64,000 nt of DNA from an uncultured archaeon (GCA_964475145.1 CAYYVK010000001.1:6328-70327), one strand, 5' to 3'. Shown: positions 24,270 to 64,000, numbered from the stretch's first letter. Numbers and translations: made by a program. Notes: a model not told the origin generated them from the letters alone.

Positions 24270-25760
24270 TTAAAAAGGATATCCTAAACCTAGTGTAAAC
24301 AAGTAGACGTCAAACATGTCCCTGTTTAGTGTATTCACGTAAGAGACTTCATAACCTTTCTTTACTGGTGTAATAGTAGCTTCTAAAGAGATTTTTTTAG
24401 AGGCGAAAAGGAGCAAAGAAATGAGAAGCATTCTTTCATCATCACCAACTCCACCATCAGTAAAATTGGCTATCCAAGCAGTATTGTAAGCAGGTGTACT
24501 CTTGAGTACTACTCCTGGTATTATCCCTCCGGTCTCTGTTGTATTTTCTGCTTGAATTAACACCCTATTATAATCGTTATCATCTGGAAGTATGATATAA
24601 TATCTTCCCCACCTATTTACCAGGCCAGCAGCTACAGCATGCGCAGGTGGACCCTTACCTGGCTTATTCGGATCTATCTGGTATCCAAACTCGTATCTGA
24701 TAAAATCATAAAACTTGTACTTCGGCTGAAATGTTATGCCAATTTTTCCTTCACGGATATAGCTTAAAAGAAAAGTAAAGTTTTCACTCTGATTGTGAAG
24801 GTTTGGTAACTCGAATTTCTCACCTACACCTACTTTCAAATCAGCAGTACCATTCCAATCTGTGTCGAAGTAAACACTACTAAAGTTGCAAACCCAAAAA
24901 GAATAAGCATAAGGCTCTTCTACATTTTGACTGTCTACTTGATAGACGTAAGATTGTATCTTCAAGCTCCCATTGGTTATGTTTGAACAGTAAGGAGAAG
25001 GTAAAGAACCTTCTGTTTGGATATTACCTGATGGTAGTTGACTTGTTAAAATTGGGGCAGGAATATGGTAAAAATACTTCCAAGGTTGGTAGATTATATC
25101 ACTTGCGTTGCACGGCTTTTCGTCGCATTCGTATGTGACTCTAAATTTGTCGTAATCGGAAAACCTGGAAGTCTCTGTAATTGTCGTGTTAGTTAGCCCG
25201 AATATTTGTTTTGTTCCTAGATCGAGTAAAGTAGCGTTCAAGTCAGAAATCTCAACTATTCCGTTTCCGCTGCTAAGATAAGAATTTAGCATGCTAGTAT
25301 AAGGTGTAAGGTTTCTGTAACCCCAAATTAAAAGAAGGTCAGAACCAAAGTAGCAGGGATTAACAATACCAAGATAACTCGGACAAAACTCAATTCTAAT
25401 AGGTCTATTGTTCACCTCAAGCCCATAGGTCCAGTTGTTCAAAACGCTAATTTGTTCGTCTGTGCAATTACATGCTACAACTATTCTTCCTTTTATTGTC
25501 CCTTGTGTTGTATACCAAAAGACGGTATTGTTACCTAGAACTGTCTTAGTCAGGAAATCGGAAAGTGCATTTCTGTCAAAAGAAACACTGTATAGGATGC
25601 CTATCCTATCAGCAGTAGTTATCACATCTCGTAGTTTTAGAAGTGTGTCTGCAGCATCCCATCCGGTCTCGTAATAAAAAGGTGGGAAAAATATTGTTAG
25701 TGTAACTATCAGAATTATTATGGTTGAAATTGCTTCTATAATAGATATTTGTCCGCGCAT
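24270..25760 (-). CDS. large pilin-like surface glycoprotein with class III (type IV prepilin-like) signal peptide
   Basis: MRG|QISIIEAISTIIILIVTL N-terminus; ~19 N-x-S/T sequons in 496 aa; last gene of pilus locus. Confidence 0.5.
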   Translation of the reverse strand: MRGQISIIEAISTIIILIVTLTIFFPPFYYETGWDAADTLLKLRDVITTADRIGILYSVSFDRNALSDFLTKTVLGNNTVFWYTTQGTIKGRIVVACNCTDEQISVLNNWTYGLEVNNRPIRIEFCPSYLGIVNPCYFGSDLLLIWGYRNLTPYTSMLNSYLSSGNGIVEISDLNATLLDLGTKQIFGLTNTTITETSRFSDYDKFRVTYECDEKPCNASDIIYQPWKYFYHIPAPILTSQLPSGNIQTEGSLPSPYCSNITNGSLKIQSYVYQVDSQNVEEPYAYSFWVCNFSSVYFDTDWNGTADLKVGVGEKFELPNLHNQSENFTFLLSYIREGKIGITFQPKYKFYDFIRYEFGYQIDPNKPGKGPPAHAVAAGLVNRWGRYYIILPDDNDYNRVLIQAENTTETGGIIPGVVLKSTPAYNTAWIANFTDGGVGDDERMLLISLLLFASKKISLEATITPVKKGYEVSYVNTLNRDMFDVYLFTLGLGYPF

Positions 25761-25761
25761 C

Positions 25762-26268
25762 TTACCACACTCTTACACTTATTTTTGCATAAGAGCCTGA
25801 ATCTAAGGCCGCTATTCTAGTTACTTCTGCTATATTCTGTCTGGAAATCTTGGTAGGAGGTGAACAGCTTGCTAAGAGTGTGTTAGAAATTAAGTCTGCA
25901 ATCGTGATCTCAAATTGATAATCTTGTGGTACTCCTAATTTTTCGGCGATGGAATTGTAGTCTGAAGAACATGTTTGATTAAAGGCTTGTATTTTATCGA
26001 GAGAAATTAAGTTTGTTAAATTCTTCAACTCGCTAGAAAGGCCTATTCTCTTTATTTCACCAGGACTCGTTTGGGTCCAATTGAGTGGTTCGCCAAAATC
26101 GTTTACTAAAAGCTCAGAAATCTGGTAAGCTTCTGCTTTTAGAAGCCTATTTCTTATTTCTGCTCTGTACACCGAAGTAGCAGAAATTGTTTGAAAAACT
26201 ATGTATGTGGCAAACATTACAAACAATACTAGAGAAAAATAGTATTCGGAAGATACTTGAGCCTTCAT
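25762..26268 (-). CDS. pilin-like protein (class III signal peptide MKA|QVSSEYYF...)
   Basis: short charged N-terminus then ~20-aa hydrophobic helix; stop/start abuts neighbours. Confidence 0.4.
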   Translation of the reverse strand: MKAQVSSEYYFSLVLFVMFATYIVFQTISATSVYRAEIRNRLLKAEAYQISELLVNDFGEPLNWTQTSPGEIKRIGLSSELKNLTNLISLDKIQAFNQTCSSDYNSIAEKLGVPQDYQFEITIADLISNTLLASCSPPTKISRQNIAEVTRIAALDSGSYAKISVRVW

Positions 26269-29841: not shown

Positions 29842-30263
29842 CAGCTTACCCCTAAAATATTTTTATCTTTTTCTAATGTTAAAGTTATAGGCTTAATCGA
29901 GTAAGAAAAGCCGTTGAAAAGAAGTGTATAGTTTAAATTGTGTAAGGATGACTTATCTGCGACTCCTCCTGGTTGAGTAATTACACTAGACTGATTGTTG
30001 CTAAAACTTATCTCTGTGTAATAACCTCCTGTCATGTTCTGGAGTTTGAAAGAAAGAGCAGCATAATCACATATTTTACATTCAGCAAGAAGGTTTATAG
30101 CAATCGCTGAAACGTAGCTATTAACCAATTTTCTGTGACCAGAAGCAACGTCTTCTCTAAATAGGTCGGACTGAAGTTTAAAAAAGTATCCTAATGCTCC
30201 TAGTATGCTTATGCTTAAGACAAAGAAAATTACAAATTGTACTACGACTGTTTGAGCTTTCAT
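29841..30263 (-). CDS. pilin-like protein (MKA|QTVVVQFVIFFVL...)
   Basis: class III-like signal peptide; 140 aa. Confidence 0.4.
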   Translation of the reverse strand: MKAQTVVVQFVIFFVLSISILGALGYFFKLQSDLFREDVASGHRKLVNSYVSAIAINLLAECKICDYAALSFKLQNMTGGYYTEISFSNNQSSVITQPGGVADKSSLHNLNYTLLFNGFSYSIKPITLTLEKDKNILGVS

Positions 30264-30874
30264 CCTAAAAGAATTTTTACTTTTGTTATAGTTAAACCTT
30301 CTGGAGTTGTGGTTATTTCACCCCTAGATATACCTATTGTTTTACCAGTAGAGGTTGTGGGACCTGTTACCTCTAACTCGATCTTCTGTCTTACATTAGG
30401 GTTGCTTGGGTCTACTAGCTCTCTAAACCATATTTTGTAAGTGATGTTGTAACCGTCTCCAAAAGGATCTGCACGACCACAAGTAACGAAAGAGTTACTT
30501 CCTAGGTATGCTGAATCTGAAGGAGATACACAATTATCGCCAGCCAAGAGTGCAACCCAGTCTCCTGTTGCTGCTAGGTTAGTAGCTTTGCTAAAAAAAG
30601 TAAACTGAATACTGTTACTTGCAGTTTCAATTATCCATATGCCGTCTACGTCTAATTTAAACGTATCATACCCACCCTTGTTAGCAACGGTTGTTATCTT
30701 TCTTTGTAAGGAGTTTGGATTGTTTGGGTCAAAATATCCAGCTACTCTTTCTGTTACAGACCTGCTCTGCATTTTTTGTATTAACGGCAAACCCCATGTA
30801 TATGCCATCGCAACAAGTGTTATGGCTATTAGCACTACCAAAACAGCAGAAATGATCTCACTCACACCTTTCAT
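30260..30874 (-). CDS. type IV pilin (archaeal class III signal peptide MKG|VSEIISAVLVVLIAITLVA)
   Basis: Textbook prepilin/prearchaellin N-terminus; first pilin of locus. Confidence 0.6.
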   Translation of the reverse strand: MKGVSEIISAVLVVLIAITLVAMAYTWGLPLIQKMQSRSVTERVAGYFDPNNPNSLQRKITTVANKGGYDTFKLDVDGIWIIETASNSIQFTFFSKATNLAATGDWVALLAGDNCVSPSDSAYLGSNSFVTCGRADPFGDGYNITYKIWFRELVDPSNPNVRQKIELEVTGPTTSTGKTIGISRGEITTTPEGLTITKVKILLG

Positions 30875-30877
30875 ATT

Positions 30878-31345
30878 TTATAGTGTTGGTTTTGGTGGTA
30901 ATAAAGGTTTTTTAATAGTAATTGGTGGTCTTCTTAGTCTCTTCTCCACTTCTTCCAAAGATGCTTGCATAGCCTGGTTCGCTTCTACCATCTTCTTTGT
31001 CATTTCTATTAGCTGGTCCAGCTTTTGAGCAATAGAAGGAGTGATTCCTTCCTTAGAAGCTACTTCCTCTTCTGCCGACGCTTTTATGAAATTTATTAGT
31101 TCTTCTAACCTTGAAGTCAGATCTTCTAACCTGGAAGGAAGCTTTGAAAGCTCTATTCTCAAGGCATCGTTGGCCTTTGCTAATTCGTCTACAATTTGTT
31201 GATTCATCCTGATTATATCTACAAGCTCTTTATAAAGCTCTTTCGAGTCAAAAGCTTTGGAAGCTTCTAACTGCTCTATTCTCTTTTCCAACCTTCTTAA
31301 AGGAGAAATAGGAATTATTTCTACTTCCTCTGTACATTCTGGCAT
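30878..31345 (-). CDS. coiled-coil protein (prefoldin-like heptad repeats), function unknown
   Basis: 155 aa; long heptad-repeat helices, Pro-rich basic tail. Confidence 0.3.
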   Translation of the reverse strand: MPECTEEVEIIPISPLRRLEKRIEQLEASKAFDSKELYKELVDIIRMNQQIVDELAKANDALRIELSKLPSRLEDLTSRLEELINFIKASAEEEVASKEGITPSIAQKLDQLIEMTKKMVEANQAMQASLEEVEKRLRRPPITIKKPLLPPKPTL

Positions 31346-34313: not shown

Positions 34314-34410
34314 GGGCGAGTAGCTTAGCCTGGTGGAGCACAAGTGCTTAATCGCCTTATAAGGCAGCTAAGCTAGCGAGGGGTCGAGGGTTCAAATCCC
34401 TCCTCGCCCA
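34314..34410 (+). tRNA. tRNA (97 nt) with one or more non-canonical insertions/introns; isotype unresolved
   Basis: Perfect acceptor GGGCGAG/CTCGCCC, T-arm GAGGG-TTCAAAT-CCCTC, D-arm GCTT-AGCCTGGTG-GAGC, discriminator A. Anticodon region holds perfect helix GCTTA/TAAGC enclosing 18 nt with nested hairpin GCCT-TATA-AGGC; about 23 nt exceed a 74-nt tRNA. Confidence 0.7.
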
Positions 34411-36110: not shown

Positions 36111-37151
36111 ATGGAGCTCGAATCAAAAATTTTTAAGAATGAAGAAATTTTGTTGCCAGAATACTTACCAGAAATTCTCCCCCATAGAGAGAGTCAGATA
36201 AAACTCTTAGCAGAGAACCTTTTAGCAACTTTAAAAGGGAGGAAGCAAAATACATTCATCTTTGGCCCTCCAGGGATAGGAAAAACAGCAACAGTAAAGT
36301 ACGTGTTTAGAGAGTTTGAAGATTATTCTGGTATAAAAACTGTATATACAAATTGTTGGGATCATAGAACTGCTACAGCTGTCCTTTCACACCTTGCACT
36401 TAGTTTAGGAATGTTTGTGCAAAGACATGGTTGGTCGAAAGATGAAATAATGTCAAGGCTTCTAGAAGGACTAAAAAAGTGGGGAAAAAGTGTTGTAGTT
36501 TGTCTAGACGAAGTAGATCAACTAATATTCAGGGATGCTTCCGTCTTGTACGACCTGCTTAGGATAGACCAGTACGTGAAAAATCCTATTACTCTTATTT
36601 TCATTTCGAACAATCCTCACGTCTTTGCTAAAGTGGAACCGAGGATAAAAAGTAGCTTATCTGTAGAAGAAATAGAATTCAAGCCTTACACACTCCAGGA
36701 AATGAAGGATATACTAGAAGAGAGAGCAAAAAATGCCTTTACTGCAGTCGAGAAAGGAGTTGTGCTGCTTGCGGCTAATCGTGCTGTTCAAATGGGAGGA
36801 GATGTTAGAATAGGTTTGGACTGCCTGCTAAGAGCTGGAAGGCTAGCAGAACGTGAAAATGCTGAGATGGTAAAAGTAGAACATGTAAAAAGGGTTCTTA
36901 AAGAAGTTGAACCTGTTAAACCGAAGATCCTTAGGGAAAAGATAAACGAACATGAAAAAGTGTTGCTAGAGATACTTGATAAGGAAAAAATTCTTAGTTC
37001 TGGAGACCTTTACAGGAAATATTGTGAAGTATCTTCAAACCCTGTAAGCGACAGAGCTTTTAGAGATCTAGTGAAACATTTACAAGAATTAAAGCTGATA
37101 AGAGTAAGGAAAGGAAAGTCAAGAAACCTAAGAATAATATCAAAAATATAA
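36111..37151 (+). CDS. cdc6: Orc1/Cdc6 replication initiator
   Basis: AAA+ Walker A FGPPGIGKTATVKY, Walker B VVCLDEVDQL, C-terminal winged helix. Confidence 0.85.
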   Translation: MELESKIFKNEEILLPEYLPEILPHRESQIKLLAENLLATLKGRKQNTFIFGPPGIGKTATVKYVFREFEDYSGIKTVYTNCWDHRTATAVLSHLALSLGMFVQRHGWSKDEIMSRLLEGLKKWGKSVVVCLDEVDQLIFRDASVLYDLLRIDQYVKNPITLIFISNNPHVFAKVEPRIKSSLSVEEIEFKPYTLQEMKDILEERAKNAFTAVEKGVVLLAANRAVQMGGDVRIGLDCLLRAGRLAERENAEMVKVEHVKRVLKEVEPVKPKILREKINEHEKVLLEILDKEKILSSGDLYRKYCEVSSNPVSDRAFRDLVKHLQELKLIRVRKGKSRNLRIISKI

Positions 37152-37179: not shown

Positions 37180-37295
37180 AGCGGGGTGGAGCATAGCCTT
37201 GGAAATTCCAGGGCTCTCGAAGCCTGGAGTGCTCGTCGATGCTAAGCGAAAGGCTCATAACCCGAAGGTCGTTGGTTCAAATCCAACCCCCGCTA
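37180..37295 (+). tRNA. initiator tRNA-Met (CAT), 116 nt, with two insertions: ~11 nt in D-loop and 32 nt inside the 5' strand of the anticodon stem
   Basis: A1:U72 acceptor AGCGGGG/CCCCGCT, three G:C pairs 29-31:39-41, loop CTCATAA, variable AGGTC, T-arm GTTGG-TTCAAAT-CCAAC; D-loop ATAGCC[TTGGAAATTCC]AGG; anticodon stem TCG[AAGCCTGGAGTGCTCGTCGATGCTAAGCGAAA]GG / CCCGA. Confidence 0.75.
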
Positions 37296-37350: not shown

Positions 37351-37872
37351 ATGAAGGTGTTCTTAACAGGAGCGCCGGGCTCTGGCAAGTCAACTGTCTT
37401 AATGAATATAGTTGAAATTTTAAGAGAAAAAGGGTTAAAAATTGGTGGTATTGTTACACCAGAAATAAGAAGTGGGAGGAGAAGAATTGGTTTTGGAGTA
37501 AAAGACGTCTTTTCTTGTGAAGAAGGGATCTTAGCGAGAGTAGACGAAAAAGTTGGTCCTAAAGTTGGAAAGTATACAATCAATTTGGAAAGCTTTGAAA
37601 AGATTGCTTTACCCGCATTAGATTTTGCTTTTGAAAATTGTGACTTGGTTGTTATAGACGAGATTGGGAAAATGGAAGCTTTCAGCAAGAGATTCATGGA
37701 AAAAGTTTTTGAAATTTTAAGTTCGAAGAAGAAAGTCTTGGCAGTTTTGCATAGAAACTTTGTCTCGGAATTTAAAAGTTTTGGTAGAGTTATAGAAGTT
37801 ACTGAGAAGAATAGAGACGTATTACCACAAGAGTTGGTAAAATACTTTTTAAGTGGGTCCGCGCAGAATTGA
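37351..37872 (+). CDS. nucleoside-triphosphatase THEP1 family (P-loop NTPase)
   Basis: MKVFLTGAPGSGKST Walker A, VVIDEIGKME Walker B; 173 aa. Confidence 0.7.
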   Translation: MKVFLTGAPGSGKSTVLMNIVEILREKGLKIGGIVTPEIRSGRRRIGFGVKDVFSCEEGILARVDEKVGPKVGKYTINLESFEKIALPALDFAFENCDLVVIDEIGKMEAFSKRFMEKVFEILSSKKKVLAVLHRNFVSEFKSFGRVIEVTEKNRDVLPQELVKYFLSGSAQN

Positions 37873-42498: not shown

Positions 42499-42969
42499 AT
42501 GGGAAAAATAACATCTAAGGAAGAAGAGTACGATACAAGAAACGCAAGGAGAATAAAAGAGCTTCTCGATAAAAATGAAAGAGGTCTTACAATAGCAGAA
42601 ATAGCTAATCAGCTAAAGCTCAACAGACATACAGTAGCAAAGTTGTGTGAAAGGATGTTAATAGAAAAAAAGATCAATTATGACGAAAAAGGTCCTGCAA
42701 AAGTCTACTACTCTGTTGGTCCAAGCAGGTTTGTTGGTAGAATAGACTTAAGCCCTACCGAGAAATTGTGGATAGATGTTTTCAAACATCCTAAATATAG
42801 CGGGGAGGAAGAGTTTGTAAGAATAAACCAAACTAAACATGATAACTTAATTAGATCGAGTAGCAAGTTTAAGTCTGTTGGAGCTATAGCAATTAAAAAG
42901 AGTCAACTAATAAACTTTATAAGAATTCTAAGGGATGTCGCAAGAAAGGAGTTTGGCTTGAACGTCTAG
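42499..42969 (+). CDS. winged-helix transcriptional regulator
   Basis: LTIAEIANQLKLNRHTVAKLCERMLIEKKI HTH. Confidence 0.45.
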   Translation: MGKITSKEEEYDTRNARRIKELLDKNERGLTIAEIANQLKLNRHTVAKLCERMLIEKKINYDEKGPAKVYYSVGPSRFVGRIDLSPTEKLWIDVFKHPKYSGEEEFVRINQTKHDNLIRSSSKFKSVGAIAIKKSQLINFIRILRDVARKEFGLNV

Positions 42970-49762: not shown

Positions 49763-50275
49763 ATGGAAGTTTTTGGCATAAGCATGCAAGAGTTAATCTT
49801 CTCCATATTTCTTCCCTTTGTTTTGTTCTATCTTCTGTTCTTTGCCTTATTAAGAAAGTCTAAGATACTTGGCGAAAATAAGAATTTAGACGCTGCCACC
49901 GCTTTAGTGTTCTCAGCCTTAGTAATCACAAGCATGTACTCCCTTGGGATAACACGATACTTAGCAAACTTTGGTGCAGCTGTCGCGGTTGCATGTTTTG
50001 CTGCCTTGTTTATCTATGGCACTATAAAGATGACTCTCACAAAAGGGTGGGAATATGCTACAGAAGTAGACAGAAAAAAATTTGAAGAACTGGAGAAAAA
50101 AGGTGAAGAGCTGTGGAAGGAATTTCTCAAAGGAGATTCTTCTGCCTTTCCTGCTTTGGAGAATGTGGTAAAAGAACTTGAAGTGCTAGCGAAAAAGTTG
50201 AAGAAGGATTTGAACCAGATCGAGTGGTACAAAAAATATAAAGAGTATAAAAGGCGTCCTGAAAAAGGTGGCTGA
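49763..50275 (+). CDS. membrane protein with charged C-terminal tail
   Basis: 170 aa, 3 TM. Confidence 0.35.
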   Translation: MEVFGISMQELIFSIFLPFVLFYLLFFALLRKSKILGENKNLDAATALVFSALVITSMYSLGITRYLANFGAAVAVACFAALFIYGTIKMTLTKGWEYATEVDRKKFEELEKKGEELWKEFLKGDSSAFPALENVVKELEVLAKKLKKDLNQIEWYKKYKEYKRRPEKGG

Positions 50276-51858: not shown

Positions 51859-53400
51859 TCATCTTTCCAAAACAAACATCTTTTTTGTTATTGGTATTTC
51901 TCTTACTCGATGAATCAACATTTCCCTCTTTTCTCCAATGCCGATAGGAATTTCTTCTGCTAATAAGTTAGAAGCTCTTTCCAGCTTCCTCAGTTTTTCC
52001 GCATAGATTGTGAGAATTTTCTCTTCTTTCTTTACAGGATCTCCAAGTTTCTTGTGTAAAGTTACACCAGCTCCCTTATCTTTTGGTGCTCCTGCTGCTT
52101 TGGCAACCTCGGATATACCCCCATTATCGATCCACAACACTCTCCCATTTTTCTCTGACTTTATATCCAATTTATACGCACCTACCTCCACTTCCTCAGG
52201 ACTTATCTTTTTCCCTCCTTGGGCTTCCATTATTTCATAGAGTTTTTTCATGGCTTTACCAGAGTTTAATGCAGCTTTAGCTAGATTCTCGGAATTTCTT
52301 TTACCCACCATGCTCAGAAGTATTTGTGCTAAAGAGCATACCTTCTCTTCTAGATCGCTTACAATTCTTCTTCTTGAAATGACTTCTAAAGCCTCCCTTG
52401 CTTCAAGAGCAGGACCTATCGAATAGCCTACAGGCTGTTCCCCATAAGTAACAGCGCACTGAACTTTTATTCCAACCCTTTTCCCAAGCTCTATAAAATC
52501 TTTTGCTAACAAATCTGCATCTCCTATAGTCTTAATTTTTGCTCCTCTACCAGTAGGTATATCTATCACCAAATGTGTAGCTCCAACCGCTTTTTTCTTT
52601 GCCATTATAGATGGTAGAAGAAGAGGATCTATACCAAGAGGGTATTCTATCTGAATGAATATATCGTCTGCAGGGGCTAGCTGTAAAGTGCCTCCCCAAA
52701 CTATGCAACCGTTTGTTTTTTCTACCACTTTCTTCATTTCTTCAATGGTTAAGTTAACTGGCATCAAACATCCTGCTCTATCAGCTGTGCCTGCTGGTGA
52801 AGTAATTGCTCTAGAAGATGTCTTTGGTATTGTTAAGCCAAGACAAGCGATTATAGGAACGAGGAGTAGCGTAGTCTTATCTCCTGGCACACCACCTGCA
52901 GAATGTTTATCACAAATAATTTTCCTCTTCAGATTAAGCTTTTTTCCAGTCTCGACCATAGCAATAGATAAGCTTGTAGCCTCGTCTAAGTCTAGTCCAG
53001 TATTGTGAAGAGTGGTAACAAAAGCAGATATTTCTATATCGGTCAAGTTTCTTTCTACAATATCTTTAACAATTTGCTTTATTTCGTCATAGTTCAGTTT
53101 TCTTCCTTTTAGCTTGTTCCTGATGAAATGAAGAGATTGAGGGAATTTTGCAACTTCCACTTCTAACGTTTCTTCCCTTCTTAGCCCAAGGGCTGCTTTG
53201 ACTTCCTCGTACAAGCCTATCGTACCTTTTTCTACTATCTTTTCTGTCACGTTTACTATAGCAGTTACACAATTCTTTTTGTAACCAACCCTAACTCTGT
53301 CAAGACTATGTATACCTAAATCTCCTGCATCCTCCATGTTCAAAATTACTATCGGTTTACCACCCGACTCCAAGCCTAGGAACTTTGCCTTCAAGTTCAT
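51859..53400 (-). CDS. deoA: AMP phosphorylase (thymidine-phosphorylase family, archaeal DeoA-like)
   Basis: 513 aa; N-terminal ~90-aa extension plus glycosyl-transferase family-3 core (SAGGVPGDKTTL; TGRGAKIKT). Confidence 0.8.
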   Translation of the reverse strand: MNLKAKFLGLESGGKPIVILNMEDAGDLGIHSLDRVRVGYKKNCVTAIVNVTEKIVEKGTIGLYEEVKAALGLRREETLEVEVAKFPQSLHFIRNKLKGRKLNYDEIKQIVKDIVERNLTDIEISAFVTTLHNTGLDLDEATSLSIAMVETGKKLNLKRKIICDKHSAGGVPGDKTTLLLVPIIACLGLTIPKTSSRAITSPAGTADRAGCLMPVNLTIEEMKKVVEKTNGCIVWGGTLQLAPADDIFIQIEYPLGIDPLLLPSIMAKKKAVGATHLVIDIPTGRGAKIKTIGDADLLAKDFIELGKRVGIKVQCAVTYGEQPVGYSIGPALEAREALEVISRRRIVSDLEEKVCSLAQILLSMVGKRNSENLAKAALNSGKAMKKLYEIMEAQGGKKISPEEVEVGAYKLDIKSEKNGRVLWIDNGGISEVAKAAGAPKDKGAGVTLHKKLGDPVKKEEKILTIYAEKLRKLERASNLLAEEIPIGIGEKREMLIHRVREIPITKKMFVLER

Positions 53401-53774
53401 GCTACACTACACACTCCTTCTATACATTTGCATGACAAAGAAGGTTTTGGAGAAATTATCTGAGGGCAAATAACCTTAAATCCGCTACATGTAACGTTAC
53501 TCCTTTTGTTTATGCATTCCCAATTGGCTCCGGCTGTCTCTGGACAACAATTAGTGGAAAGCCATTCACAATCTGTATCAAAAGTGCATGAACGAATTAT
53601 CTCAGGTGTATGAACTGGTATTGTAGTTGATGGAGCTGTGGTCGTGGTTGTTGTCCCTATAGTTATTTGTGTGACGCATAAATTTTTCTGGACAGATTTT
53701 AGAAAGATCCAGAAGCCGATCAACATAGTTAAAATGGTGAAAAGGATATAAGGAGTACACCTTCTTACCTTCAT
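53397..53774 (-). CDS. small secreted/anchored Cys-rich protein with poly-Thr linker
   Basis: 125 aa; N-terminal TM/signal, TTTTTTAPSTT linker, 11 Cys in final 60 aa; 4-nt overlap with deoA start. Confidence 0.4.
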   Translation of the reverse strand: MKVRRCTPYILFTILTMLIGFWIFLKSVQKNLCVTQITIGTTTTTTAPSTTIPVHTPEIIRSCTFDTDCEWLSTNCCPETAGANWECINKRSNVTCSGFKVICPQIISPKPSLSCKCIEGVCSVA

Positions 53775-53849
53775 AAGTTAAATTTTGTTATCTGAAAATA
53801 AATGCTTAGGAAGACATTTTCTTGAGTGCCAGCCTCAAAAGATTAGAAG

Positions 53850-55091
53850 TTATCTGGAAGAAACAAAACCAAACTTGTTTAATGCTAGCTTGAGTTCTTT
53901 ATGTGTCTTGGAATACTCTTGTAGCGAGATTCCTTCTAATGCAGCATCCAATGCTTGCCTCATTGCGATAGCACCTATTCTTGTTTGAAGAGAGTGTATT
54001 CCACCGCCAGCTTGAACAATGAAATCGTTACCAAATACTTTTATCAATTGAGGTATATGGCCAGGATGCAACCCTCCAGAAGCAACAGGCATAACAGGCT
54101 TAAACTTCCATAGCCCTTCTTTTAACGCTTTACAATTTTCTAAAACTTCTTCCTTCTTCTCAAACATTTTCCCTACTCCTGTGCCTACGTGCAACTGATC
54201 TACACCAACAATTCTCGCAAGCTTTGCAATAACTTTCATGGATATACCATGCTTAGAATTTCTTGTTAGAGCTGCATGCCCTGCCCTATGTGCATGAATA
54301 ACAAGGTTAAAGTCTTGATTCCTTAAAGTCTGCAACGCAGACCAACCTATAGTAATTATGTCAACCATTATATACTCGTTCCCAACGTTCTCCACAGCCT
54401 TGGCACGTTTTAGCATTTCTTGCGTTTCTGCAGTAACGTTTATCATGTATGCTTTCTTCTCACCAGTTTCTTTTTCAGCCTTTTCTTTTGCTTTAAATGT
54501 TTTCTCTAACCTCTTCTCGAACTTATTGAAGTTTTGGCTGCTTAAGTTTTCATCATCTTTTACTATATCAATACCATTAACCCAAGCTTCGTAAGCAACT
54601 TTTACATGTTCTTCTGTTCTTAATCCAATCTTAGGTTTTATTATTGTCCCCAGCAAAGGTCTATTTGTCCTAAAAATTTTCCTTATCCCTTTTATTCCAT
54701 ACTTCGGACCTTTGAAGCTTTTCAGAAGCTTCTCTGGAATTGTTAAATCGACGAGCCTTAAACTTTTTATCTCTTTCATGCCAAAGATGTTTCCTGCCAC
54801 GCTAGAGAGGATCTGAGGAATATTTCCAGGTTCAAAAAGCTCAACAGGATAAGCAACGTTTATTCTTTTTCCCTCAATCTTAAAAACTTTTGCTGCAAGT
54901 TTTCTAACATACTTTTTCTCAGTTTTCACTTCTGTCCACGTTCCAGTCGAGCTCTCTGCAGCAATTGCACCAGCTGCTCTTTCTATACTTGAATTCCCTG
55001 CAGGCTCTAAAACGAATTCACATACCAAATCGTCCTTGCCTGGCTTGTAACCAAGGTCTACATAGTCTTCGTATCGCACACCATCACCCAA
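53850..55091 (-). CDS. rbcL: ribulose-1,5-bisphosphate carboxylase, form III
   Basis: 413 aa; GTIIKPKIGL, KDDENLSSQ, AGGGIHS-type motifs; clustered with AMPpase and R15P isomerase. Confidence 0.9.
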   Translation of the reverse strand: MGDGVRYEDYVDLGYKPGKDDLVCEFVLEPAGNSSIERAAGAIAAESSTGTWTEVKTEKKYVRKLAAKVFKIEGKRINVAYPVELFEPGNIPQILSSVAGNIFGMKEIKSLRLVDLTIPEKLLKSFKGPKYGIKGIRKIFRTNRPLLGTIIKPKIGLRTEEHVKVAYEAWVNGIDIVKDDENLSSQNFNKFEKRLEKTFKAKEKAEKETGEKKAYMINVTAETQEMLKRAKAVENVGNEYIMVDIITIGWSALQTLRNQDFNLVIHAHRAGHAALTRNSKHGISMKVIAKLARIVGVDQLHVGTGVGKMFEKKEEVLENCKALKEGLWKFKPVMPVASGGLHPGHIPQLIKVFGNDFIVQAGGGIHSLQTRIGAIAMRQALDAALEGISLQEYSKTHKELKLALNKFGFVSSR

Positions 55092-55923
55092 ACCTTTTCA
55101 TAAATTCTTTTGGCGTGAAAATTCCTTTTTCATTCACCAAGTAAGAAACAAGGTCAAACTCTACCAGATCAAAAGCCGGATTTCTCACTTTAATCTTTTT
55201 AGTGTTGATTTTAGAAAAAATTTCAGCATAAATTTCTTCTGCTGGCCTTTCTTCTATCACAAGCTTTTTCCTCTTATCTATCTTTAGAGTATTGCCAACA
55301 ACGATAAATGGTTTTTTCTCTCTTGCAGCTGCTAGCGCAAGGTTTTTTGTACCTATCTTGTTCACTACACCCTTAGGCTCAACAACTCTTATAGCATCTG
55401 TTCCAACTACTACACAATCTACATCTTTCATAAAATAGCTAACAGAATTGTCTGTAATGAGTGTGACAGGTATTCCAATCTTAGAAAGCTCTTTAGCAGT
55501 TTTCACCCCTTGCTCAAGAGGTTCTGTTATCGTAGCAAAAACACGGAATTTTTTCCCTTTTTTCCAGGCATTCTTTAAAACAGATAAAGCTTCACCAGAA
55601 TGACAGTGAGTCATTATTGTATGTCCATTACCAATAAGCTTACTTCCAATCCTTGCAACCCTTTTGGTAGAAGTTTCTAGTCTTTTGATGAGATAGTCTA
55701 TCGTTTTGACACTCTTTTTCTTTTTCAAAATCTCTAAGCAATTGTGTAAAACTACTGCAGTTGGTCTTGCACGCTCAAGTATCATTGCTGCAACCTCAAA
55801 CTTTAAACCAAATCCATACTTCTTACAGAACTTCCTCAAGAATTTTAACGAATACAAAGCAATCTCTTTAGCACCTTGAACTTTCATGCTCTGTATGCTT
55901 TCAGCAACTCTGGAAACATCCAT
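55084..55923 (-). CDS. ribose-1,5-bisphosphate isomerase (eIF-2B alpha/beta/delta-like family)
   Basis: 279 aa; GTDAIRVVEPKGVVNKIGT and CHSG motifs; 8-nt overlap with rbcL. Confidence 0.8.
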   Translation of the reverse strand: MDVSRVAESIQSMKVQGAKEIALYSLKFLRKFCKKYGFGLKFEVAAMILERARPTAVVLHNCLEILKKKKSVKTIDYLIKRLETSTKRVARIGSKLIGNGHTIMTHCHSGEALSVLKNAWKKGKKFRVFATITEPLEQGVKTAKELSKIGIPVTLITDNSVSYFMKDVDCVVVGTDAIRVVEPKGVVNKIGTKNLALAAAREKKPFIVVGNTLKIDKRKKLVIEERPAEEIYAEIFSKINTKKIKVRNPAFDLVEFDLVSYLVNEKGIFTPKEFMKRFG

Positions 55924-57646: not shown

Positions 57647-57748
57647 TGGGGTCGACGGGATTCGAACCCGCACACCGAGGTTTCCTCATCAAATCAGAGC
57701 TCCATTCAGCTGGAGCCTCGTGTCACTACCAGGTTAGACGACGACCCC
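57647..57748 (-). tRNA. tRNA-Trp (CCA) with 28-nt intron at canonical 37/38 position
   Basis: GGGGTCG-TC-GTCT-AACCTGGTAG-TGAC-A-CGAGG-CTCCAG[CTGAATGGAGCTCTGATTTGATGAGGAA]A-CCTCG-GTGT-GCGGG-TTCGAAT-CCCGT-CGACCCC-A; intron UGGAG pairs with anticodon loop. Confidence 0.8.
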
Positions 57749-60269: not shown

Positions 60270-60764
60270 ATGAAGGGTATTGCAATTTCTACTGTAGCTC
60301 TGTTTATAATTGCTGTTTTTGTTGTCGTAATGCTTATAATTTTCATAGGGTCGAACTTTTCCCCTGCTTTGAGGAGTGCATACTGCTCTTTGCTAATAGG
60401 GTTGAGAGGTTTCCTTCCTTTGCCAGAAAGCTTAAAGCCTGGATTGCCTACTTACTGCAAGGAAGACGTATATCCACAGACTTATTACATAGAATCCGAC
60501 CAGCCTGACAAGATAGCTTATGAGGTTGCTTCTTACATTCTGGCATGCTGGGAGGTTACTGGAAGAGTAGACTTGAAAGCGAACAGGACATGCTCAGAAG
60601 TTGTTATAAAGCGTATACAGGGAGTTGTAGACAAGAGTTTAGTTATGAGTAAACTACCTGAAAATTATCGAAACATATTTGATTGGAAAGCTGATATCAT
60701 CGATAGACCAAAATCTTTAGGTATACTGTACGAATACCCAAGCAAGAAGGTGGTGGTTGTATGA
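60270..60764 (+). CDS. pilin-like protein, class III signal peptide MKG|IAISTVALFIIAVF
   Basis: 164 aa. Confidence 0.45.
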   Translation: MKGIAISTVALFIIAVFVVVMLIIFIGSNFSPALRSAYCSLLIGLRGFLPLPESLKPGLPTYCKEDVYPQTYYIESDQPDKIAYEVASYILACWEVTGRVDLKANRTCSEVVIKRIQGVVDKSLVMSKLPENYRNIFDWKADIIDRPKSLGILYEYPSKKVVVV

Positions 60765-62910: not shown

Positions 62911-64000
62911 ATGTTAAAAAGGATGTTTTTAGTATTTCCTGTTTTCATGCTTTTGTTAATTTCTGTAGTTAAGGCAGGTTGTATAGAGTCTATAGGATAT
63001 CCTCCAGCTTATCCAGGTATCGATCCTTGGTGCTCTTTACCTGGTAATGTGTGTCAACAAGGAGATGGTATATTTGGTACGCTTAAAACCACTGGTTGCC
63101 CCTCAACACCGAGTGTTCAAATCGAAATAAAAGGAGATGGTTGCTCTATAACAGATACCTTTTCTGCAGGCAGGTACTACTGCAGTGGGCCTGGCTGTTG
63201 GTACGAATATCTATGGTACATCCCACAACTGCCTTCCGGCTGCCTTGGAAAAATAGTTACTGTTACTGTTACATCAGAAGGTGTGTCGGCATCAAAAACT
63301 ATAAAGCTTTCTACAGATTCTACTAGAGACAATCCTCCGACAATGCCTAAGCCAGGAGAGTGGTCAGTATCACCTATATATTCAACGGATAAAGTGTCGT
63401 ATACTGCTTATGCTGAAGATGATAAAGGATTGAAAGAAATAAAAATTTTAGCTATGATCAACGGTCAACCATGGACTGTAGTTAAAGTGTGTTCCGTCTC
63501 TGGAACTTCTGCCTCCTGCACGTATACAGGAGGGCCTTATCCTGCTGACACTGAAGTTTGCTTCAAGGGTGCTGCAACTGATACAAGAGGTCAAGAAGCA
63601 AGTAGCACAGATGTTGGTGCGAGAGCAGAGTGTCAGCGTGTCCTTAGCCCGCCACATGACACAGATAACGGTAAAAATTATACGACAAAAGGTGTATGCA
63701 TAGATACAAGAACATGGGAAGACTTCTGCCCGTGGGAAGGGCCTAGAGGATATTGTTGTGGTATTTTGCCAGGGTATTACTGGCATGTTATAAACTTGTC
63801 AACGGACGGAACAGTTACTTGCTGCAGAACAAGCTCACCAAAACCCGTTGGAGGCTGTTTGGAAACAAGGATAATAAACTGTAAAAATGTTTTGGGAGAA
63901 TATTACCCAAGTGCTAGAGAGTGTAGCTTAGAACTATATGATTGCTCGAAAGAGGGAAAGACTTGCTTTAACGGAGCTTGTGTTTCTGGAATACCGACAA
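62911..64000 (+). CDS. secreted Cys-rich protein, 3' end beyond window
   Basis: ATG at 62911, open to window end (>360 aa); signal peptide MLKRMFLVFPVFMLLLISVVKAG; many Cys; not in ORF track because no stop. Confidence 0.5.
   Translation, partial: MLKRMFLVFPVFMLLLISVVKAGCIESIGYPPAYPGIDPWCSLPGNVCQQGDGIFGTLKTTGCPSTPSVQIEIKGDGCSITDTFSAGRYYCSGPGCWYEYLWYIPQLPSGCLGKIVTVTVTSEGVSASKTIKLSTDSTRDNPPTMPKPGEWSVSPIYSTDKVSYTAYAEDDKGLKEIKILAMINGQPWTVVKVCSVSGTSASCTYTGGPYPADTEVCFKGAATDTRGQEASSTDVGARAECQRVLSPPHDTDNGKNYTTKGVCIDTRTWEDFCPWEGPRGYCCGILPGYYWHVINLSTDGTVTCCRTSSPKPVGGCLETRIINCKNVLGEYYPSARECSLELYDCSKEGKTCFNGACVSGIPT

Follow-up and report, generated by a model that had tools for sequence, protein, structure and literature searches.

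What question do positions 37180-37295 (+) of this 64,000-nucleotide (nt) stretch of DNA from an uncultured archaeon raise? It is whether the 116 nt found there, AGCGGGGTGGAGCATAGCCTTGGAAATTCCAGGGCTCTCGAAGCCTGGAGTGCTCGTCGATGCTAAGCGAAAGGCTCATAACCCGAAGGTCGTTGGTTCAAATCCAACCCCCGCTA, encode a working initiator transfer RNA (tRNA) and, if so, which of them belong to the mature molecule. The whole 64-kb stretch is referred to below as the window. A sequence-only reading had recognised an initiator tRNA-Met gene at this locus, with an 11-nt intron in the D-loop at about tRNA positions 20/21 and a 32-nt intron in the anticodon stem at 29/30. Our analysis leads us to regard the locus as very probably the working initiator tRNA-Met gene of an archaeon of the DPANN group, with Aenigmarchaeota metagenome-assembled genomes (MAGs) as the closest relatives and with a two-intron precursor of the bulge-helix-bulge (BHB) type. 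As judged from sequence comparison, this archaeal-type gene is interrupted by two non-canonical introns, which are placed here between tRNA positions 14 and 15 (14/15) and between positions 29 and 30 (29/30), and which amount to 41 nt in total.

Syntenic genes as natural deletion controls

Syntenic loci were found through homologues of the adjacent Cdc6. The contigs of the relatives keep the order lysyl-tRNA synthetase (LysRS)-Cdc6-tRNA, in part followed by the nucleoside triphosphatase (NTPase) gene, and synteny extends down to 52% Cdc6 identity. The intron contents of the syntenic genes, which are designated by locus handles, are listed in Table 1 together with the predicted elements of the window gene. 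In L127, GGAGCAGCCTGGAGT is contiguous and exon 1 is joined directly to exon 2, as is also the case in 22 intron-less genes; the contiguous stretch GGAGCAGCCTGGAGTGCTCG of L127 shows that intron 1 is missing exactly at the proposed junction. The reciprocal situation is found in L120-L124 and L128, where GCTCGTCGGGCTCATAA is contiguous and the exon 2 block, which occurs in intron-less DPANN initiators as well, runs straight into GGCTCATAA. Intron 2 is absent from L120-L124 at precisely the proposed junction. Intron 2 is present, with lengths of 13-33 nt, in 22 other distinct genes, and intron 1 has counterparts, differing in hairpin sequence, in L120, L123, L125, L126, L128, L145, L152, L190, L215 and L247. 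The window gene itself is carried in identical form by L245, an independent contig that is 99.6% identical over 6.7 kb.

The genes of the closest relatives, L120-L124 (Cdc6 identity 88-92%), are without the 29/30 intron and possess one of 31 nt at 64/65, which is absent from the window gene. Such differences between close relatives are, on the evidence of the alignments, snapshots of the gain and loss of BHB introns in one syntenic gene. A 'snapshot of intron insertion' of this kind has been asked for in reviews, and the window gene represents one allele in the series.

Table 1. Predicted exons, introns and splice motifs of the initiator tRNA gene, with the intron content of syntenic genes. 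Cdc6 values are per cent identity; a slash within a bulge marks the cut.
Feature	Position	Strand	Description
Exon 1	37180..37193	+	14 nt, AGCGGGGTGGAGCA; positions 1-14: acceptor 5' strand, U8 G9, D-stem 5' strand G10-C13, A14
BHB-1, 5' side	37188..37194	+	H strand GGAG, then 3-nt bulge C13 A14 / U15 with 5' splice site
Intron 1	37194..37221	+	28 nt, TAGCCTTGGAAATTCCAGGGCTCTCGAA; at 14/15; a repeated A lets the junction slide by 1 nt to 13/14
BHB-1, inner helix h'	37195..37215	+	hairpin of 9 base pairs, AGCCTTGGA and TCCAGGGCT, loop AAT; gene positions 16-24 and 28-36
BHB-1, 3' side	37216..37222	+	H strand CTCG, then AA / G (A41 A42 / G43) with 3' splice site; no outer helix, relaxed HBh' type
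Exon 2	37222..37238	+	17 nt, GCCTGGAGTGCTCGTCG; positions 15-29: rest of D-loop with G18 G19, D-stem 3' strand GCUC, G26, U27 C28 G29
BHB-2, 5' side	37231..37239	+	outer strand GC, H strand TCGT, bulge C28 G29 / A (C58 G59 / A60 in gene numbering) with 5' splice site
Intron 2	37239..37251	+	13 nt, ATGCTAAGCGAAA; at 29/30; splits the run of three G:C pairs of the anticodon stem; junction unique
BHB-2, 3' side	37246..37254	+	H strand GCGA, bulge AA / G (A71 A72 / G73) with 3' splice site, outer strand GC of exon 3
Exon 3	37252..37295	+	44 nt; positions 30-73: G30 G31, loop CUCAUAA (anticodon CAU), CCCGA, AGGUC, T arm, acceptor 3' strand CCCCGCU, discriminator A73; CCA not encoded
L120-L122			Cdc6 92%; introns 14/15 (29 nt), 64/65 (31 nt); intron 2 absent
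L123-L124			Cdc6 88%; introns 14/15 (29 nt), 64/65 (31 nt); intron 2 absent
L125			Cdc6 85%; introns 14/15 (28 nt), 29/30 (14 nt); contig ends inside the gene
L126			Cdc6 75%; introns 14/15 (30 nt), 29/30 (21 nt), 37/38 (14 nt), 43/44 (25 nt)
L127			Cdc6 73%; introns 29/30 (14 nt), 37/38 (13 nt), 51/52 (30 nt), 59/60 (18 nt); intron 1 absent
L128			Cdc6 68%; sole intron 14/15 (21 nt)
L129			Cdc6 68%; introns 10/11 (20 nt), 20a/21 (12 nt), 32/33 (17 nt), 59/60 (20 nt)

The predicted mature tRNA and the choice of splice junctions

Removal of both predicted introns yields the 75-mer AGCGGGGUGGAGC-AGCCUGGAGU-GCUC-G-UCGGG-CUCAUAA-CCCGA-AGGUC-GUUGG-UUCAAAU-CCAAC-CCCCGCU-A. Its minimum free energy (MFE) fold is the cloverleaf, with the acceptor, D, anticodon and T arms all formed (-32.5 kcal/mol), and ARAGORN calls it tRNA-Met(CAT). 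Archaeal initiator tRNAs are characterised by A1:U72, the three pairs G29-31:C39-41 and the anticodon CAU. The 75-mer has CAU in the 7-nt loop CUCAUAA and A1:U72 at the ends of the acceptor stem (AGCGGGG...CCCCGCU-A), while the G:C pairs 29:41, 30:40 and 31:39 form between UCG-GG and CCCGA only once the 13-nt intron has been removed. The assignment to the archaeal initiator type that had been made on the basis of these elements is supported.

The 75-mer differs from the intron-less metagenomic initiator gene L153 in one compensated T-stem pair, and from the gene of Ca. Iainarchaeum, L046, in two D-loop bases; the latter reads AGCGGGGTGGAGCAGCTAGGAGTGCTCGTCGGG, followed by a 42-nt 3' sequence that is identical to that of the window gene. 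Gene positions 52-59, GCTC-G-TCG, provide the D-stem 3' strand, G26 and U27-G29. Together with the preceding AGCCTGGAGT they correspond almost exactly to the D arm of the intron-less DPANN initiator genes L046, L016 and L075, and also nearly to the D arm of E. coli tRNA-fMet. The agreement of the 75-mer with intron-less initiators is far beyond chance. A scan of genome contigs with the 42-nt 3' half returned 119 loci (L001-L119), 116 of them bacterial and three of them useful archaeal genes; in these three DPANN initiator genes the 42-nt pattern of exon 3, CTCATAA...GCTA, is unchanged.

As a separate observation, the same 42-nt 3' part (CTCATAA...CCCCGCTA) is identical in tRNA-fMet genes of many bacterial MAGs belonging to Dehalococcoidia, Zixibacteria, Omnitrophota, Planctomycetia and others. 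These bacterial genes start with CGCGGGG, which would give a C1-U72 mismatch.

All the strings on which the sequence-only reading was built are present at the locus: AGCGGGG, the 3' end CCCCGCTA (giving A1:U72 and the discriminator A), the loop CTCATAA, AGGTC and the T arm GTTGG-TTCAAAT-CCAAC, as well as the proposed splits ATAGCC-TTGGAAATTCC-AGG and TCG, 32 nt, GG, within a gene of 116 nt. Two splicing events at non-canonical positions are indeed needed, with the introns now placed at 14/15 and 29/30. The second intron had been positioned properly at 29/30, but is 13 nt long instead of 32 nt, since the supposed 32 nt are made up of 2 nt from the end of intron 1, the 17-nt exon 2 and intron 2. 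The supposed 11-nt D-loop insert is in fact part of a 28-nt intron at 14/15 (equivalently 13/14), all 28 nt of which are lacking in L127. TAGCC and AGGGCTCTCG, 15 nt that had been taken for exon, both belong to intron 1.

The earlier set of junctions would lead to a 73-nt initiator tRNA, a product that we consider extremely improbable. The 73-mer holds all initiator elements of the 3' half and is accepted by ARAGORN at the default threshold. Titration of this threshold separates the two products only weakly, as the 73-mer is accepted up to 110% and the 75-mer up to 115% of the default. Yet the 73-mer has no nucleotide 26 and no positions 20 and 21, its G19 being directly followed by the D-stem 3' strand, and its MFE fold is not a cloverleaf. 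Its junctions allow 1/4 and 2/4 central-helix pairs, the latter with 0 Watson-Crick pairs. Moreover, this parse throws out GCCTGGAGTGCTCGTCG, a block that all intron-less relatives have as exon. It is also contradicted by L127, from which the whole 28-nt segment is absent, including the pieces that had been regarded as exon, and by L120-L124, in which GCTCGTCG is joined directly to GGCTCATAA.

The decoy of exon 2 that lies in intron 1 accounts for this parse: AGCC(T)TGG...AG(G)GCTC-TCGA can be aligned to AGCCTGGAGTGCTCGTCGA over 17 of 19 nt with three gaps (37194-37221 versus 37221-37240). One may speculate that intron 1 arose by local or tandem duplication, or else that the resemblance is merely the pairing needed for helix H of the splice motif. 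Distant 14/15 introns have only CUC(G/A/U)AA in common with exon 2, and the resemblance may therefore reflect helix H pairing alone.

Bulge-helix-bulge motifs at the two introns

The strict motif, hBHBh', consists of two 3-nt bulges on opposite strands of a central helix (H), flanked by an outer (h) and an inner (h') helix. In the standard geometry, exon nucleotides -6 to -3 pair with intron nucleotides -6 to -3, and the cut in either 3-nt bulge falls between its second and third nucleotides. Junctions were scored by a script on this geometry, counting H, h and h' pairs. The geometry was validated on canonical 37/38 introns, most of which, mainly in genes without a 29/30 intron, return h = 5, corresponding to the anticodon stem.

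At intron 1, G10-C39, A11-U38 and G12-C37 are paired in helix H and G9 lies opposite G40 (gene numbering), so that three of the four pairs are Watson-Crick. Exactly these pairs, G10-G12 with C37-C39, and the bulge are contained in the MFE fold of the precursor computed with RNAfold. Related genes vary in ways that keep the motif. U replaces G9 in L123, giving a fourth pair, U-G, and the intron 1 hairpin of L125 shows compensatory changes from C-G to U-A and from U-G to C-G. In L190, L215, L128 and L247, unrelated sequences still form a hairpin at the place of h'. The 14/15 introns (16-32 nt) follow one plan in 10/10 distinct cases, namely 1 nt, a hairpin of unrelated sequence, CTCG, CTCA or CTCT (CUC(G/A/U) in the RNA), and AA/G.

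At intron 2, the outer pairs are G52-C75 and C53-G74 in gene numbering (G22-C32 and C23-G31 in tRNA numbering; h = 2). Helix H, UCGU/GCGA, is complete with 4/4 pairs, three of them Watson-Crick (U54-A70, C55-G69 and G56-C68) and one U-G (U57-G67). The interior of the intron, UGCUAA, is essentially a loop, and the motif is of the hBH/BHL type. The two strands of the D-stem are used separately by the two motifs and their nucleotides are disjoint; therefore, both motifs can form in one precursor.

Introns in related initiator tRNA genes

A metagenome scan for the exon 2 block AGCCTGGAGTGCTCGTCG returned 120 loci which, combined with the syntenic loci, gave 108 initiator genes, 77 of them distinct. 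Each gene was aligned to the 75-mer, long insertions being free, before its junctions were scored; for a few distant genes (L193, L199) the automatic parsing is not perfect. ARAGORN identified all 77 spliced products as tRNA-Met(CAT) and placed the ends exactly in 76. Each of the 23 distinct introns at 29/30, which measure 13-33 nt, has 4/4 H pairs and h = 2. The 3' H strand of these introns varies between GCGA, ACGA, ATGA and GTGA, all of which are complementary to exon UCGU, whereas their interiors are hairpins of unrelated sequence; their first base is always A. Over 121 introns, four of four H pairs were found in 72 and at least three of four in 114, compared with 2.8% and 17%, respectively, when the same intron lengths were placed at random in the same genes. 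Our analysis establishes the predicted exon/intron structure, the motifs and the conservation of the motifs.

The number of introns per distinct gene ranges from 0 to 5 (none in 22 genes, one in 24, two in 8, three in 13, four in 8 and five in 2), with L129 as an additional four-intron gene. Five introns are present in L212 and L186, and four in L126, L127, L129, L130, L131, L137, L146, L149 and L195. The 193-nt L212, for example, has introns at 10/11, 29/30, 37/38, 51/52 and 59/60. When spliced in silico, all of the four- and five-intron genes give a canonical tRNA-Met(CAT) of 75-76 nt, and the Cdc6 or NTPase neighbourhood is kept by multi-intron genes such as L126, L127, L149 and L186. In the orthologues, introns occupy at least 12 sites, including 10/11, 14/15, 20a/21, 29/30, 32/33, 37/38, 43/44, 51/52, 59/60, 62/63 and 64/65.

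The sources consulted put the maximum at three introns for an archaeal tRNA gene (PMC4033280, PMC8450103, and likewise the tRNAscan-SE 2.0 paper), a number that the orthologues with 0-5 introns appear to exceed. As far as the literature could be searched, no report of more than three introns in one archaeal tRNA gene was found. We are slightly inclined to believe that this DPANN lineage has, in its initiator tRNA gene, the most intron-dense archaeal tRNA gene described, with active gain and loss of BHB introns.

Many of the related initiator genes (L132, L135, L164, L170 and others) have the anticodon loop CCCAUAA, in which C33 replaces the nearly universal U33, and a mature length of 76 nt. 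Most of these genes have the canonical 37/38 intron only, and some of these introns are 90-110 nt long.

Proposed processing of the precursor

In the processing that we propose, the gene would be transcribed as a precursor with two protein-spliced introns of the BHB type, of 28 nt at 14/15 and 13 nt at 29/30. The D-stem would be unable to form in this precursor. G10-A11-G12 would pair with CUC of intron 1 to form the central helix of an HBh' motif, and the D-stem 3' strand together with G26 and U27 would pair with GCGA at the end of intron 2 to form an hBH/BHL motif. EndA would then cut at four sites and RtcB would ligate the three exons. Trimming of the ends by RNase P and RNase Z, followed by addition of CCA, would give the canonical 75-nt initiator tRNA. 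CCA addition is proposed because the gene is followed by TAAAC and not by CCA.

Several points weigh against this interpretation. Splicing itself is something we infer from the sequence, as are transcription, the enzymes involved, the cleavage chemistry and the order of events. Both motifs are relaxed: the first has a clean 5' bulge, CA/U, but G faces G at the fourth position of helix H and the 3' site lacks an outer helix, and the second has a clean 3' bulge, AA/G, but a 5' bulge that opens into a 9-nt loop. The second motif lies outside the MFE fold of the full precursor; a structure with both motifs has -36.3 kcal/mol as specified and -40.5 kcal/mol when optimised under constraint, compared with -45.6 kcal/mol for the MFE. 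An unconstrained scan of all site pairs in the 116-mer is noisy, with several chance sites scoring equally and the true introns not ranked at the top by the ad hoc score. It is the orthologues, not the motif by itself, that settle the parse. Furthermore, no EndA or RtcB was detected among the 30 open reading frames (ORFs) of the window, chosen in the size ranges of these proteins, that were scanned with Pfam. These 30 come from a set of 74 window ORFs of at least 90 amino acids, and eight of the 30 are without any Pfam match. Lastly, the finding that the 64-kb window contains no second initiator-type anticodon arm applies to these 64 kb of the genome. Relaxed motifs have been reported to need EndAs with a specificity loop and to be substrates solely of broad-specificity EndAs (PMC5829648).

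The folding energies also bear on how the introns might be removed. It is possible, though on balance doubtful, that these are real introns removed in a fixed order, with one motif forming only after the other intron has gone, or that a lineage-specific factor beyond EndA is involved. The second motif is outside the MFE fold both of the full precursor and of the precursor without intron 1, whereas the first remains in the MFE fold once intron 2 is removed; therefore, a preferred order of splicing or a dependence on protein binding may be envisaged. Ordered intron removal is documented in multi-intron tRNAs (PMC8450103, PMC3728597), which provides a precedent. On the other hand, the two motifs use disjoint nucleotides, so that nothing imposes an order, and MFE gaps of 5-9 kcal/mol can be surmounted by protein binding.

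A different view would be that the locus is a decaying, non-functional copy and that the working initiator tRNA is encoded elsewhere in the genome. This is very unlikely. The standard tRNA finders do miss the gene and only 64 kb of the genome are visible, but every one of the 75 exon nucleotides is preserved, in agreement with intron-less genes that look functional, and the locus is syntenic in relatives down to the lowest Cdc6 identity given above. Exons and BHB pairing have been retained in spite of the divergence of the introns, which indicates purifying selection. A single match was obtained in each of the 120 contig stretches from the scan, and the single initiator-type anticodon arm in the window argues in the same direction. 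As far as this can be judged, a pseudogene, which the sequence-only reading had named as the outcome that would overturn it, is not what is found here, also because the corrected junctions are BHB-compatible.

Also at odds with the comparison of relatives is the idea that the inserts are retained, giving a mature tRNA with an enlarged D arm and an extra hairpin. Nothing specific speaks for it apart from the stability of the intron 1 hairpin. Retention would leave the D-stem strands separated and the G29-G31 stem, an initiator identity element, split; relatives with and without the inserts have identical exons, and conserved splice-site motifs are present at the insert ends. We regard retention as having hardly any likelihood.

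The relaxed BHB introns favoured here also differ from other kinds of intron. Group I and group II ribozyme cores comprise hundreds of nucleotides, while the inserts of 28 and 13 nt gave no Rfam intron matches, and a self-splicing intron is not indicated. It had also been suggested that an intron of this gene might host a guide RNA. A box C/D guide carries a C box (RUGAUGA) and a D box (CUGA), with a guide of at least about 10 nt, and is about 50 nt long or longer. There is no UGAUGA, GAUGA or CUGA anywhere in 37180-37295, and the two introns are of 28 and 13 nt; the suggestion was not upheld.

Gene context and detection

The tRNA gene lies 29 nt downstream of cdc6/orc1 (36111-37151) and is followed by a gene for a THEP1-type NTPase (37351-37872). 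The archaeal context of the locus also includes a thermosome subunit and a class I LysRS. Among the Cdc6 homologues, matches from named Candidatus Aenigmarchaeota MAGs are 59-64% identical, and further metagenomic relatives are 68-92% identical. The source organism is accordingly placed, by protein similarity, nearest to the Candidatus Aenigmarchaeota MAGs.

On the window, the gene was missed by ARAGORN, with and without its intron options, and by Rfam at the gathering threshold. With a permissive threshold, the Rfam tRNA model matched only the 3' part (anticodon and T arms) with 15 bits, and ARAGORN at 80% of its threshold produced a spurious tRNA-Trp call. An essential gene is thus invisible to both tools and was mis-parsed when first read. 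Therefore, estimates of genome completeness and of tRNA sets for DPANN are likely to be too low unless searches for multiple introns are run.

Other features of the window

ARAGORN reports 34314-34410 (+) as 'tRNA-???' with the anticodon taat. Introns can be placed at 34342-34351 (10 nt, 27/28) and 34362-34374 (13 nt, 37/38), and after their removal ARAGORN calls the 74-mer tRNA-Ile(tat), that is, tRNA-Ile(UAU). In this candidate, the 10-nt intron has 4/4 H pairs including one G-U, and the 13-nt intron has 4/4 Watson-Crick H pairs. Archaea seldom use UAU as an anticodon for Ile, and an intron of 10 nt is very short.

The tRNA-Trp(CCA) gene at 57647-57748 (-) has a canonical 28-nt intron at 57682-57709, CUGAAUGGAGCUCUGAUUUGAUGAGGAA. 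A core of AAUGGAGCU-CUGA-N2-3-(U/C)GAUGA is conserved in L250 and L251, where the neighbouring gene is 76-77% identical, and other positions of the intron vary. Its UGGAGC and exon G31-A36 are complementary; C34, the target of the known box C/D guide in the tRNA-Trp intron, is paired by the fifth base upstream of CUGA. Going by these sequence features, the intron could be a miniature D'/C' guide. Rfam at E<=10 gave no match to a C/D family in the tRNA-Trp region.

At 51862-55923 (-), a thymidine/AMP-phosphorylase-like gene (Glycos_transf_3 and PYNP_C), a gene for the RuBisCO large subunit and a ribose-1,5-bisphosphate isomerase-like gene are adjacent. The label of the last is based on its position and on an IF-2B family match in the syntenic L250 and L251. 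These genes are predicted to constitute the archaeal AMP (adenosine monophosphate) salvage module, which is ordinary for DPANN and confirms the type of lineage. The eight ORFs of 152-496 amino acids without a Pfam match at E<=0.001 include 24273-25760, 25765-26268, 30263-31345, 42499-42966, 49763-50272, 60270-60761 and 62911-63999.

Comparison with known systems

A box C/D guide RNA reportedly resides inside the tRNA-Trp intron of Euryarchaeota (Haloferax), as described by Clouet d'Orval et al. in 2001. The initiator introns differ from it in lacking C/D boxes and in being too short; a likeness is instead seen in the tRNA-Trp intron of the window.

The mature sequence of the window gene is the same, apart from 2-5 bases, as that of intron-less DPANN initiators, such as those of Ca. 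Iainarchaeum AUK171 (L046), archaeon SMBSF43 (L016) and LFW-252_1 (L075) and the metagenomic L153 and L240. They have in common A1:U72, G29-31:C39-41, the CUCAUAA loop and the D arm GAGC-AGCNNGGAGU-GCUC. Those genes are uninterrupted, whereas the window gene carries its introns. Another essential initiator tRNA with a disrupted gene and BHB processing is known from Thermofilum pendens, where, according to Chan et al. (2011) as cited in PMC4090602, the initiator tRNA-Met gene is permuted. The permutation is circular there, whereas the window gene is collinear with two introns.

Within DPANN, broad-specificity endonucleases have been described, namely the epsilon2 EndA of ARMAN-2 (PMC3239211, PMC3488258) and the alpha4 EndA with an L3 loop (PMC5829648). 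Predicted DPANN tRNA sets are reported to be incomplete and to need manual curation (PMC5829648). The window gene resembles other disrupted DPANN tRNA genes in having multiple, non-canonical introns, and it illustrates how such incomplete sets come about. An analysis of tRNA introns in Aenigmarchaeota was not found in the literature as far as it could be searched. If the proposed processing applies, every initiation of translation would require that the precursor be spliced twice at non-canonical positions, both times at relaxed motifs, and these motifs predict a broad-specificity endonuclease in a lineage without a characterised one.

The closest parallel is provided by the multi-intron tRNA genes of Thermoproteales (Crenarchaeota), which are considered here as Sugahara et al. 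(2007/2008) are represented in PMC4033280 and PMC8450103. As in the window gene, short protein-spliced introns occur there at non-canonical sites in the D arm and anticodon stem, with relaxed hBH, HBh' and BHL motifs, several per gene, and are missed by standard finders. Unlike these, the window gene comes from a DPANN archaeon near Aenigmarchaeota, a group with low-GC genomes, and its orthologues have up to five introns, compared with the three reported in the sources cited. Multi-intron archaeal tRNA genes are already known, and what goes further here is a family of orthologues with 0-5 introns that differ between close relatives. With the same exons throughout, this set of orthologues is a compact natural data set on the origin, movement and loss of BHB introns.

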